NCBI RefSeq assembly: GCF_006345805.1
Contig: NC_043000.1
Coordinates: forward strand, 121,334,001-121,398,000
DNA from: Octopus sinensis
Taxonomy: Eukaryota
Length of the DNA: 64,000 nucleotides
Direction: 5' to 3'
In this document: positions 16,377 through 30,894 of the stretch, piece after piece
Layout of the letters: each line of letters opens with the position of its first letter
Position numbering within the stretch: the first letter of the stretch is position 1
Made by a program: the position numbers and the translations under genes
Notes under the pieces: model-generated
Databases searched by the model: none
Seen by the model: only the letters and a program-made list of their open reading frames with translations
What the model was told of the DNA's origin: nothing

Positions 16377-16630
16377 CATATACATGCATACCTATTCAGA
16401 TACATAGATCCAGATATAAATTGGTATAGAAAGATAGATGCAGATATGTAAAACTGTTGGTTTACAACTTGTATGGACGAAATTTCCTGTTAATCATATT
16501 TATTTATTTAAGAATATAACTAAAGAAACACAATCACCTAGTTTGGTACACACACACAAACACGCAACTCTCTCTGTATATATATATATATATATAGATA
16601 TATATAGGAAAAAGCAACAAAAGGATTAAA

Positions 16631-16717
16631 TCTCGGTACGATCGTTTCGTACGAGGACATCTTTAATAAGCTACAAAAGATGCAGTGAAACAGATGGCTC
16701 GTACTCGTCAGCCGAAA
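16631..16717 (-). ncRNA. Type I hammerhead ribozyme, canonical core (left-arm copy)
   Basis: Reverse complement of the 17131-17218 motif; core, stems and triplet retained. Confidence 0.8.
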
Positions 16718-17130
16718 ATATCAGAGAATTCCCAACATCAAAAGGGGTAGACATAAAGAGATGTAGGATTAACTGCATTGAAGAAAGTTCGATTCATGGA
16801 GATCTGATGAAAGGTTTTAAACCTATAGAATTTATGCATGTCTACATATAGCTATATTGAATATTTGATCAAGTTATATGAAGAAAATTTTCGGATACAG
16901 TCATGCAAAATTCTTACTCGGATTTTCAGAAACTTTGCATGACTGTATCCGAAAATTTCTTCATATAACTTGATCAAATATTCAATATGAGCTATATGTA
17001 GACATGCATAAATTCTATAGGTTTAAAACCTTTCATCAGATCTCCATGAATCGAACTTTCTTCAATGCAGTTAATCCTACAATCTCTTTTATATCTACCC
17101 CTTTTGATGTTTGGGAATTCTCTGATATTT

Positions 17131-17218
17131 TTTCGGCTGACGAGTACGAGCCATCTGTATTCACTGCATCTTTTGTAGCTTATTAAAAATGTCCTCGTAC
17201 GAAACGATCGTACCGAGA
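17131..17218 (+). ncRNA. Type I hammerhead ribozyme, canonical core (right-arm copy)
   Basis: TTTCGG-CTGACGA(17137-43)-GTACGAG-[43 nt]-CTCGTAC-GAAA(17201-04)-CGATCG-TA-CCGAGA. 6-bp stem I (one G.U), perfect 7-bp stem II, palindromic stem III, GUA triplet. Confidence 0.85.
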
Positions 17219-17367
17219 TTTTAATCCATTCTTGTTGCTTTTTTCCTATTTATAATCACCCCACTTGTCGTATGGCTAACACCATATAGATATCCGGTGC
17301 ATCCTAGTTAAGGACCATATTCATGTGAATTCTTTAGAATTCACTAGAATCTCAATTACTTAACCGA

Positions 17368-17398
<31 letters not shown>

Positions 17399-17923
17399 CC
17401 TAATAATATCAAGGTCAGAAAACATTTTAGAAATGTTTACTCCCAGTGGCCTTGCGTGTGGAAAAAGTAGTCAATAGACTTTTTATTATTCATATGAATA
17501 AAGTGTACATTTAAATATATGAGGTAACCATCATAGGAAACCTAGCACGCTAGAAGGAATAGCCAAATTCCAAACCACTGTTAGGGATAAATTTCGAAGG
17601 GAATGAAAATAAAAACATTTTTCATCGATCTCCTGGACCATGGTTTCTAGCTATATATTAGCAAATAAAATAATTTGCCAGGCGGAGATTTCATCAACAC
17701 GTAAGCCAACATATAAATATGAGGCAATCGAGCATGTGCCCCGTGGCTATATGTTGTAACTTTTCAACACCACCGCGCGAGTGTGGTTCTTTTTCGGCGG
17801 CAAATATAAATAATGCCGGCGAATCTTCGAAAATTTGCCAAAAATGATCAATAATTAATAATATCAGGGTAAGAAATAATTTTAGAAATTTTTAGTATCA
17901 GTGGCCTAAAGTAAAGTATACTG

Positions 17924-27865: not shown

Positions 27866-28208
27866 ATAAAATATATAGTTTACTTACAGCTTGTTATTAA
27901 CAATAACTCACGTTAATATAGAAGGAAAATGTAGTACTCGTTGTGAGCTATTTTTGAAATAATGTTATTATGGAGGCAACGCAGGCAAAGTCTAAAATAA
28001 CATAATTGAAATACGAATCCAAAACTTATATAAATACATATATTCTCTATAAAATGGAAATAAAATTCCAAAATACATAAATACATATAAATAGACAATA
28101 GCGATACAATGCATAAAACACGATTGAATTTAAACAAAAACGACTATTTAAGAAAATATTTGTAAATATATTTCAAGTCGTACATTTTATATATATATAT
28201 TATATATA

Positions 28209-28266
<58 letters not shown>

Positions 28267-28612
28267 GTCGGAAAAAACAAAGTGACCCAAGAACCGAGAG
28301 TTTCGCGCATTAGCATTTATCAATCTCATTACAGGTCGAGAGGTCGTGACTTTATACACTGGGGAAAATATTATTTCCCTAGGTTCTTCTAGAACAAATT
28401 ATAAAAATAATTACGATGTCACGTGAATAATTCATATTTTTCAAAAGTTTGTTCAAAAGTTTGTTCACTACATGCAACAATAAATAAAGAAAATGGAGAA
28501 AATGTGTGTACTTATACACAAACAAATGCGAGCACTGATTGATTGAATACAATGTCTTTATACGCATACATATACACGTATACAAATGTGTAAGTATATA
28601 GTTATACATGTA

Positions 28613-28668
<56 letters not shown>

Positions 28669-28715
28669 ATATATTTATATATATATATGTACATGCATAC
28701 ATATATATATATATA

Positions 28716-28752
<37 letters not shown>

Positions 28753-29096
28753 TGTCGGAAAAAACAAAGTGACCCAAGAACCGAGAGTTTCGCGCATTAG
28801 CATTTATCAATCTCATTACAGGTCGAGAGGTCGTGACTTTATACACTGGGGAAAATATTATTTCCCTAGGTTCTTCTAGAACAAATTATAAAAATAATTA
28901 CGATGTCACGTGAATAATTCATATTTTTCAAAAGTTTGTTCAAAAGTTTGTTCACTACATGCAACAATAAATAAAGAAAATGGAGAAAATGTGTGTACTT
29001 ATACACAAACAAAAGCGAGCACTGATTGATTGAATACAATGTCTTTATACGCATACATATACACGTATACAAATGTGTAAGTATATAGTTATACAT

Positions 29097-29164
<68 letters not shown>

Positions 29165-29235
29165 ATATATTATATATATATATGTACATGCATACATATA
29201 TATAATATATATATATATATATATACATATATATA
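28267..29235. repeat. Near-identical 487-bp tandem duplication
   Basis: gtcggaaaaaacaaagtgacc starts at 28267 and again at 28754; the ORF track gives near-identical peptides for both copies. Confidence 0.95.
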
Positions 29236-29636
29236 CATATATATATGAGTGTGCACACATACACATATACAGAAATGTACAAATACCCACACATAAAAAT
29301 ACACACAAGGACGCGCGCACAGATATAGATATACACACACGTTTAAAGAACTTCCTTATGTATTTATCTATATGTTTGTTTATTTACCATTTATGTAGTT
29401 ACTTATTGAACGGCATAACGAGCAAACTATTTGAAAAATATCAATTATCCACATGACATTTTAATTTTTTTATAATGTGTTCCAGAACTATCCAGGGAAT
29501 TACTATTGTCACTGGTATATAATTTCACAACCTCTCGATCTGTAACTAGTTTCATAAACGAAACGTTCGTCACTTGAGTCACTGTATTACTTCTACTAAA
29601 TATTAAGGTATAAAAACTTATAGATATATATATGTA

Positions 29637-30894
29637 CGAGGGGCGTTCAATAAGTAATTCCCCTGACCCACTTCCCATACCAGTAGAGCAACGGAACTTG
29701 ACACAGTTATTGGTCTTTTTCTACCATCGTTTGATCCAGCTCTGGAGACCGTTTTTGTAAAAGACCCCAGTTTGGTCCTCCATCCACGACGTGACTTTAG
29801 AAATCAAGGCTGCATCATCTGGGAAATGTTTTCCTTTCAAAAACAACTTCATGGCTGGATAGAGGTGAAAATCAGAGGGTGCAAGGTCAGGAGAGTAGGG
29901 GTGGGGGAGGAGTTCATAGCCGCACGCCTGTGCTTCTGATCTGGCGACACGCGAGTTGTGGACCGGAGCGTTGTCCTGCAGGAGAAGGATGCCTTCGCTG
30001 ACTTGCCCCGCCTCTTGATTTTGATAGCTTCTCTTAATTTCATCAAAAGTGAAGCATAACAGGCTTCTGTAATTGTGATACCTTTTGCCAGGAAATCTGT
30101 CATCACTACTCCGTCCTGGTCCCAGAAGACTGTGAGCATGACCTTGCCAGCAGAGGGCTGCACACTTGCCTTCTTTGGAGGAGGTGAGTCATGGTGCTTC
30201 CACTGCATTGACTGGGCTTTGGTCTCTGGATCATAGTGATGGACAAGATTTCATCCTGTGTAATCAGTCTTTAGAAAAATTTTGACTCATCTTCTTGGTA
30301 CGTCTCCAAATTCATCCTCGAGCACTCGACGCGTTCTTGCTTCTGGAAAGGTGTGAGCAACCTTGGAATCCATCTGGCAGACACCTTTTGCATATGCAAA
30401 TGGTCATGAATGATAGTTTCCCACTGACCCGGTACTGATCTTGACCTCATGGGCTATTTGGCGAATAGTTATGCGTCGATCTTCCAAAATGGCAGCCTCA
30501 ACTTGACAGACAGATGCCTCATCAATGGCAGAAGAGGGTCGACCAGATCTGGGAGCTGTTTCCACAGAGTTCCGACCATGTTTGAATTCACGATGCCAGC
30601 GTTTTACAAGGTCATATGATGGGGCATCATCACCATAAGTTACTTTCATTTCATCAAAAGTCTCCCGTGGTGTGCCTCCTTTTAAATACAAAAACCGGAT
30701 AACTGCTCGACACTCAACAGGCTCCATTTCACACTTGACTCAGTTCAAACACCTGTAAATCAGAAACCATAATGATGTCAGAGCTGTAATTTGCCACCTA
30801 ATCCATAGAGATATAAGCAATTGCACATGCAAAATTTCAACTAGATCAAACACCTGGAAGTGGGTCAGAGGGATTACGTATTGAACGTCCCTCG
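29637..30894 (-). mobile_element. Near-full-length mariner (DD34D-type) transposon, 1258 bp
   Basis: ~39-bp TIRs cgaggggcgttcaataagtaattcccctgacccacttcc and ggaagtgggtcagagggattacgtattgaacgtccctcg; TA target-site duplication at 29635-36 and 30895-96. Confidence 0.95.
29715..30727 (-). pseudogene. Mariner transposase pseudogene
   Basis: MEPVECRAVIRFLYLKG (HTH), PRSGRP, KVSARWIPRLL, ITQDE, GKVMLTVFWD, LLQDNAPVH, PYSPDLAPSDFHL. Frameshifts near 30420, 30245 and 30000, plus an in-frame TAA near 30272. Confidence 0.95.

Follow-up and report, generated by a model that had tools for sequence, protein, structure and literature searches.

Paired inverted arms of a Penelope-like element, each with a hammerhead motif, in the genome of Octopus sinensis

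Penelope-like elements (PLEs) commonly carry an inverted, 5'-truncated copy of themselves, often with a tail at one end only, and one group of them, the Hydra clade, is described as inserting into (TA)n repeats and as having canonical hammerheads, an RWK motif, DKT in place of DKG and a CxCX5C linker (PMC8557442). The PLE of Anolis has been studied in vitro: both DNA strands are cut and extended, two internal start sites bound the tail, and hammerhead cleavage is assisted by protein, with insertion proceeding without that cleavage (PMC11167929). Paired hammerhead motifs lying 100-700 bp apart on opposite strands have already been described in Schistosoma (PMC4209133). The one-sided tail of PLEs, like their inverted copies and hammerheads, is already in print qualitatively; the origin of the inverted repeats and one-sided tails is called unresolved in the accounts cited here, and a young family gives countable end geometry.

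Here we analyze a window of 64,000 nucleotides from Octopus sinensis (NC_043000.1, positions 121,334,001 to 121,398,000), which holds a two-armed inverted insertion with a hammerhead motif in each arm, and the family of copies to which this insertion belongs. With the Hydra clade as described by Craig et al. 2021 (PMC8557442) the family shares an RWK-like motif together with DKT, the CxCX5C linker, the lack of CCHH, and CxxC and CxH motifs around the E and N residues, as well as a type I hammerhead with a short palindromic stem III, a (TA)n target and an inverted 5'-truncated copy; in the same source, Penelope-13_HM has hammerheads on both strands, like the window locus. Elements of the Hydra clade are generally shorter than 3 kb, whereas the octopus element measures 4,788 nt, with an Asn-rich linker and a 1,350-nt 3' non-coding region. 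For loop II of the hammerhead, which has 43 nt in the octopus family, the 26 Hydra-type entries listed there give 3-10 nt, and the tail has 112 nt as compared to 30-40 (PMC8557442). The cephalopod element Hydra-1_Obim of that source (2,507 bp), with another N-terminus and another hammerhead, was judged by eye to represent a different family.

The family also resembles PAc, the Poseidon PLE of Anolis (Frangieh et al. 2024, PMC11167929), in two probable start sites bounding the tail, in an AT-rich target that would be cut and extended on both strands, and in a hammerhead that insertion would not require, but PAc is described as using the same start sites on both strands, whereas the octopus pairs always have different ends, both at TA-like words. 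Features in common with the EN+ Penelope of Adineta vaga (Arkhipova et al. 2013, PMC3846280) are head-to-head inverted pLTRs with a tail on one of them, junction palindromes, solo pLTRs and Asn-rich ORF inserts; the account given there is qualitative, covers few copies, carries no end-pairing counts in the passages concerned, and reads the structures as self-priming on an antisense template. Metazoan PLE hammerheads are likewise of type I, with an unstable palindromic stem III, and are thought to act as dimers (PMC4209133). Non-LTR retrozymes, as presented in bioRxiv 10.64898/2026.07.22.740005, consist of head-to-tail tandem units, in contrast to the octopus locus, which is inverted and lies in an ORF-bearing family. 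To the described systems the family adds a long, Asn-rich Hydra-type PLE whose tail and loop II are both of unusual length, and in which the hammerhead is usually uncut on the copied RNA.

The paired insertion and its hammerhead motifs

A first-pass annotation of the window had pointed to a 640-bp palindrome at 16605..17248 with a loop of about 13 nt. The inverted repeat was confirmed by pairwise alignment of 16599-16912 with the inverted 16931-17254, giving 309 matches and 4 mismatches, one of which sits at the outer edge, in the TA sequence. The alignment also has 11 indel events, and in 10 of these the left arm lacks bases. Its extent had to be revised, as the whole insertion runs from about 16601 to 17366 (G000:C4:121350599-121351366 in the assembly) and includes a 112-nt tail, and the apparent loop turned out to be an 18-nt spacer consisting of element sequence of the right arm, which begins at 16912. 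Family positions are counted here from the hammerhead cleavage site, minus denoting its 5' side and plus the sequence past it. On this scale the left arm (16601..16912, minus strand) was placed by pairwise alignment and family mapping as the inverted 3' end of the element, from -281 to +42, and is the tail-less end. The right arm (16912..17366, plus strand) is the 3' end from -300 to +154, shows 98.2% identity to the natural copy L033 and bears the tail (17255..17366, plus strand), which in full copies is continued by the 5' leader, up to the start codon at +209. Extra 5' element sequence of the right arm (-300 to -282) occupies the junction at 16912..16930 on the plus strand, where the two arms are joined with an overlap of 1-3 nt. 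The insertion is flanked by (TA)n target repeats, to which no strand is assigned, at 16577..16606 on the left (TA x15) and 17368..17394 on the right (AT x13.5). Since the insertion continues to 17366, the GUA site is at a distance of 42 nt from the insertion's left end and of 154 nt from its right end, and not about 35 nt from the element end as previously estimated.

It is nearly certain that the palindrome is a pair of truncated PLE arms. The arms reach only -281 and -300 and therefore hold no ORF, as 1,350 nt separate the parent's stop codon from the cleavage site downstream of it. The locus had been read as a pure pLTR foldback without an ORF; the PLE origin and the absence of an ORF at the locus hold, while a distinct foldback does not, given the one-sided tail and the ORF-bearing family. 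The locus itself is an ordinary one, being one among many truncated, asymmetric two-armed insertions of that family.

A hammerhead on each strand had also been proposed, and both were found to be complete, with the type I core CUGANGA/GAAA/NUH and stems I-III present in both arms. The left-arm motif lies on the minus strand at 16631..16717, with its core at 16711-16705 and predicted cleavage after 16637. The right-arm motif lies on the plus strand at 17131..17218, with predicted cleavage after 17212, and is composed of stem I (17131-17136 with 17213-17218), the core (17137-17143), stem II (17144-17150 with 17194-17200), GAAA (17201-17204) and a palindromic stem III (17204-17211). Each arm has a 6-bp stem I, CUGACGA, a perfect 7-bp stem II, GAAA and a GUA site, in agreement with the intact core and stem II described earlier, and the stem II loop measures 43 nt in the right arm and 42 nt in the left. 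Stem III has only 2 bp in the monomer and falls within the 8-nt palindrome ACGAUCGU. A generic hammerhead descriptor gave exactly two matches in the 64-kb window, one in each arm, and none in each of 20 Markov controls. Rfam returned no hammerhead in the window, with 0 matches at the gathering threshold and none among 27 matches at E<=10, probably because of the long loop II. MicroRNA models matched at E<=10, all far under gathering; these matches reflect only the long hairpin and were rejected.

Structure prediction placed the hammerhead-constrained fold, in both arms, 4.4 kcal/mol above an alternative that pairs the core with the stem III palindrome, and for this palindrome an 8-bp self-duplex (-12 kcal/mol) is predicted. 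The predicted folds match the weak, dimer-dependent PLE hammerheads described in PMC4209133. Among 166 complete arms, 155 extend 5' through the cleavage site, 6 start within -3..+6 and 5 start further 3'; the ribozyme had therefore not cut the templates of those 155 arms. Given the predicted core-sequestering fold and the arms copied through an uncut site, the suggestion that self-cleaving RNAs arise from both strands appears doubtful for monomers. The hammerhead would rather be the normal ribozyme of a PLE pLTR, predicted to need a dimer or a protein.

Exact searches of the genome revealed no pile-up of genomic 5' ends at the cleavage site and no palindromes centered on it. TA-joined starts at +1 numbered 0, versus 1 and 0 at two control positions, counts too few to compare. 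The hammerhead core is no more conserved among family copies than the loop, as expected of a young family, in which neither selection nor covariation of the stems can show. The 3' half of the hammerhead has 334 exact matches in the genome. Contigs from public sequencing runs carry common variant letters at window positions 17206, 17209, 17217, 17252, 17276 and 17292. Some of these alter the stem III palindrome, and they suggest that other subfamilies, or CpG decay, are involved.

The parent element and its copies

A search of the octopus genome with one arm gave 913 first-look candidates, the best 40 of which were scored and yielded 46 matches of 95-100% identity, and a 34-nt exact word of the arm occurs 387 times (reversed control, 0). 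The genome holds at least 387 near-identical arms, and the family is young and present in high copy number. This search, which the first-pass annotation had recommended, retrieved solo, paired and ORF-linked copies.

One ORF-linked copy, L144 (G000:C1:7051790-7056601, minus strand), is a near full-length, frameshifted pLTR-ORF-pLTR unit with 4,788 nt between its two hammerheads. The parent ORF has its start codon at +209, and its stop codon is followed by 1,350 nt up to the next cleavage site. In pieces of this ORF from natural copies we found, in order, RWR, DKT, YRDD, an Asn-rich linker (26% N), CxCX5C and, at the C-terminus, a GIY-YIG-like IIY..YVG. The RWR, at residue 37 of the N-terminal piece, is a conservative variant of RWK, and DKT lies in the reverse transcriptase (RT) piece. 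The endonuclease region has one Cys between IIY and YVG, so that CCHH is absent, with CxxC before E and CxH after N. Atlas neighbors of the RT piece were RT/HTH_animal clusters (score 0.97), while no relevant match to the ORF pieces came from Pfam or from PDB sequences. All long copies examined (L031, L033, L104, L144 and L145) are frameshifted, stopped or cut.

At the level of motifs in such copies, the element shows the single ORF with RT and C-terminal GIY-YIG endonuclease of EN+ Penelope-like elements. It further shows the partial tandem arrangement that forms pLTRs (in L144), 5' truncation, an inverted 5' copy, a tail at one end and a pLTR hammerhead. We assign the parent provisionally to the Hydra clade on the basis of these motifs and the (TA)n target; with its Asn-rich linker and long 3' region it exceeds the size to which that clade tends. 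A Naiad reading of the N-terminus was ruled out by the C-terminal endonuclease.

Two other types of element were considered for the locus itself and rejected. A non-LTR retrozyme does not agree with the inverted pair, and no head-to-tail tandem array was present at the locus. MITEs and foldback DNA transposons have identical terminal inverted repeats at both ends and a fixed internal structure; here the ends differ by the one-sided tail, and 48 pairs have 47 different junctions.

One locus, L061 (G000:C11146:32012-33052), contains a 374-nt unit reaching from -120 through the hammerhead, the tail and the first ORF codons, in tandem and inverted arrangement, and is a retrozyme-like derivative. 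Such a mini unit as a widespread form was rejected, the L061 junction being found 3 times in all, each time within L061. Elsewhere whole insertions are duplicated together with their flanks (L105/L106 at G000:C1:212098081-212111132, L015/L016, and L108, with spacings of about 6.2 kb, 1.6 kb and 0.9 kb); these are local tandem duplications that followed insertion.

End geometry and the origin of head-to-head arms

For end mapping, 143 loci were mapped to the natural copy L033 and merged, which left 113 insertion clusters extending beyond the cleavage site. The L033 reference ends at +156, and the few copies that continue into the leader are counted at +150..+156. Part of these loci were ranked by score, and the tail query forces one tailed arm; a position-ordered sample, taken from matches of the 34-nt word on C1-C3 (96 of 98 covered, 73 clusters), was therefore counted separately.

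The arm ends fall at two places. Of 173 ends, the interval +37..+44 contains 82 and the interval +150..+156 contains 90; the remaining one is at +7. All 48 simple head-to-head pairs have one end at +42 and the partner end at about +154, and 46 of them have TA repeats at both outer flanks. The position-ordered sample contained 30 simple pairs, 35 single arms (15 tailed and 20 tail-less) and 8 more complex clusters; its 30 pairs were all mixed, with a chance of about 5e-10 if ends were independent. The exception is the two-armed locus L124, with ends at +42 and +7, while the outer ends of the four-piece locus L061 are mixed. The +42 and ~+154 ends coincide with the only TA-like words between -774 and +260, the word list having been chosen after the ends were seen.

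The inner, 5' ends are variable from pair to pair and correlated within pairs. In 19 of 47 distinct junctions they lie within 20 nt of each other, compared to a permutation mean of 2.7 and a maximum of 10 in 20,000 permutations. The arm that extends further 5' is the tail-less one in 26 junctions (with a lead of more than 20 nt in 16 of them) and the tailed one in 17, and in 4 the two extend equally far. Three pairs have no shared sequence, their tailed arms beginning at +42, +44 or +71, and in two of these the arms abut at +42/+44. Most junctions show an overlap of 1-11 nt or a short insert. In 21 pairs with enough overlap, the median divergence within pairs was 1.2%, versus 2.6% to other arms, and the partner arm was the nearest neighbor in only 10. 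The two arms of the window share alleles at 16966, 17083 and 17170 at which 90/90, 102/107 and 102/107 other arms differ, respectively.

We consider it probable, from the end geometry seen in one assembly, that the head-to-head insertions were made by both cut DNA ends priming on one element RNA at two fixed sites. The endonuclease would cut both strands of (TA)n, upon which one DNA 3' end would pair with the TA-like word at +155 and its counterpart with that at +35..+42. The two cDNAs would then be extended 5'-wards through the uncut hammerhead and would stop early, often near the same place, at the same RNA break or stall, and their ends would be joined head to head via 1-11 nt of microhomology or a short templated insert. 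The hammerhead would be a passenger in such an insertion, and the locus has two of them because the arm is duplicated.

More tentatively, as we hold this wider step to be somewhat less likely than its opposite, PLEs may integrate by programmed twin priming, in which the two DNA ends of a double-strand cut in (TA)n pair with two fixed TA-like words of one RNA, the copy begun downstream displaces the one begun upstream, and head-to-head joining of the cDNAs follows. If true, the inverted pLTR, the one-sided tail and the palindromic junctions of PLEs would all follow from a single rule, and the family would provide hundreds of naturally occurring products of it. The one-armed insertions (35 of 73 in the position-ordered sample) count against a reading by paired priming. 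The Anolis data as reported in PMC11167929 fit neither strict mixed pairing nor TA pairing directly, since the anole element shows no start-site difference between strands and its sites are non-homologous to the cut DNA. In the open-licence literature we found neither a twin-priming account for PLEs nor a counted end-pairing rule.

Alternatively, a tail-primed cDNA might fold back and self-prime, copy itself as far as the TA-like word at +42 and join the other target end, with later deletions at the center. Such a route accounts for the strict mixed pairing, the near-equal 5' ends in 19 of 47 junctions and the similarity of the arms, and self-priming has already been proposed for palindromic PLE junctions (PMC3846280); we nevertheless regard it as unlikely. 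Fold-back expects the tailed arm to reach at least as far 5' as the tail-less arm, whereas the opposite is seen in 26 of 47 junctions, with a difference above 20 nt in 16, and three pairs have no sequence in common. As far as can be judged from the sequences, the non-overlapping pairs and those with the longer tail-less arm argue against a simple fold-back, although asymmetric deletion at palindrome centers could afterwards leave the tail-less arm as the longer one, and gene conversion could make arms alike. In addition, 20 of 35 single arms are tail-less, implying that +42 can start a copy alone. Near-symmetric junctions were not enriched at built-in palindromic words (7/20 versus 37% background), which speaks against fold-back and led us to reject such words as the site of these junctions. 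Tailed and tail-less single arms did not differ in their 5' flanks (TA in 17/24 versus 11/21, p = 0.23), and this difference was rejected as well.

A less probable route would use two separate RNAs, each bound to its own subunit of a dimer and primed by its own DNA end, the choice of site being set by the asymmetry of the complex. Overlapping arms would then need no strand displacement, the anole PLE protein is predicted to dimerize (PMC11167929), and the partner arm is not the nearest neighbor in 11 of 21 pairs. Two RNAs alone, however, leave the near-equal 5' ends, the arms abutting at +42/+44 and the shared rare alleles unexplained, unless one source gene dominates at any given time; the correlated ends and shared rare alleles would argue against two unrelated RNAs. 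Priming of both DNA ends on a single RNA is the reading that we retain.

That the locus is a selected regulatory module or independent foldback, its hairpin serving ADAR or Dicer or its divergent self-cleaving RNAs being useful to the host, seems very improbable to us. For read-through RNA, prediction gives a hairpin of great stability (-518.6 kcal/mol) in which the ribozyme is hidden, 81 of its 83 bases pairing with the other arm, as the first-pass annotation had anticipated; such a hairpin may be processed by ADAR or Dicer, and PLE copies are reported to give small RNAs in rotifers (PMC3846280). Against this, the family, whose divergence is 2-3%, has dozens of similar pairs that differ widely in length, and conservation of the core among copies does not exceed that of the loop. 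The ORF list of the window shows no obvious host exon or promoter, and repeats and transposon fragments were seen there.

The 5' ends of copies recur at family positions -116 to -124 (in L005, L061, L067, L087, L089 and L098), just upstream of a short C run, which is possibly a pause site or a hot spot of joining.

Left-arm deletions and neighboring sequence

The arms had been said to differ mostly by single-base indels, and indel events do predominate (11, as compared to 4 mismatches). The left arm has nine private deletions which, judging by their pattern, are probably sequencing read errors rather than divergence. Left-arm differences were taken from pairwise counts, as MAFFT misaligned the left arm of the window (15 differences). 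An assembly artefact, in which a fold-back chimeric long read made the second arm, is hardly credible: the nine private deletions, of a kind that 95 of 107 other arms lack altogether, do resemble an unpolished, error-rich read, but a chimera would mirror the flanks and the tail. Instead, the left arm terminates at +42, a natural end of the family, within a TA repeat that is not shared with the right arm; at two sites where the right arm departs from the family-majority base, the left arm carries that base; and the same end rule is obeyed by 47 other pairs. Contigs from 4 of 24 public sequencing runs included none that spans the palindrome center, among the matches listed, and the low coverage of the left arm in them carries no weight as evidence; the runs listed for the locus included no RNA. 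A second two-armed locus, L082 (G000:C1:42795873-42796517), has one arm with 7 private deletions, and together with the window locus suggests a general failure of polishing in the palindrome arms of this assembly.

To the right, the insertion adjoins a high-depth repeat at window positions 17392-17900, with a 61-nt direct repeat 455 nt apart. Further along, the window contains a tandem duplication at 28186-29247, with a 487-nt unit that is 95% identical, and the ORF list shows transposase fragments in three frames on the minus strand at 29721-30739, which by their motifs are mariner-type.
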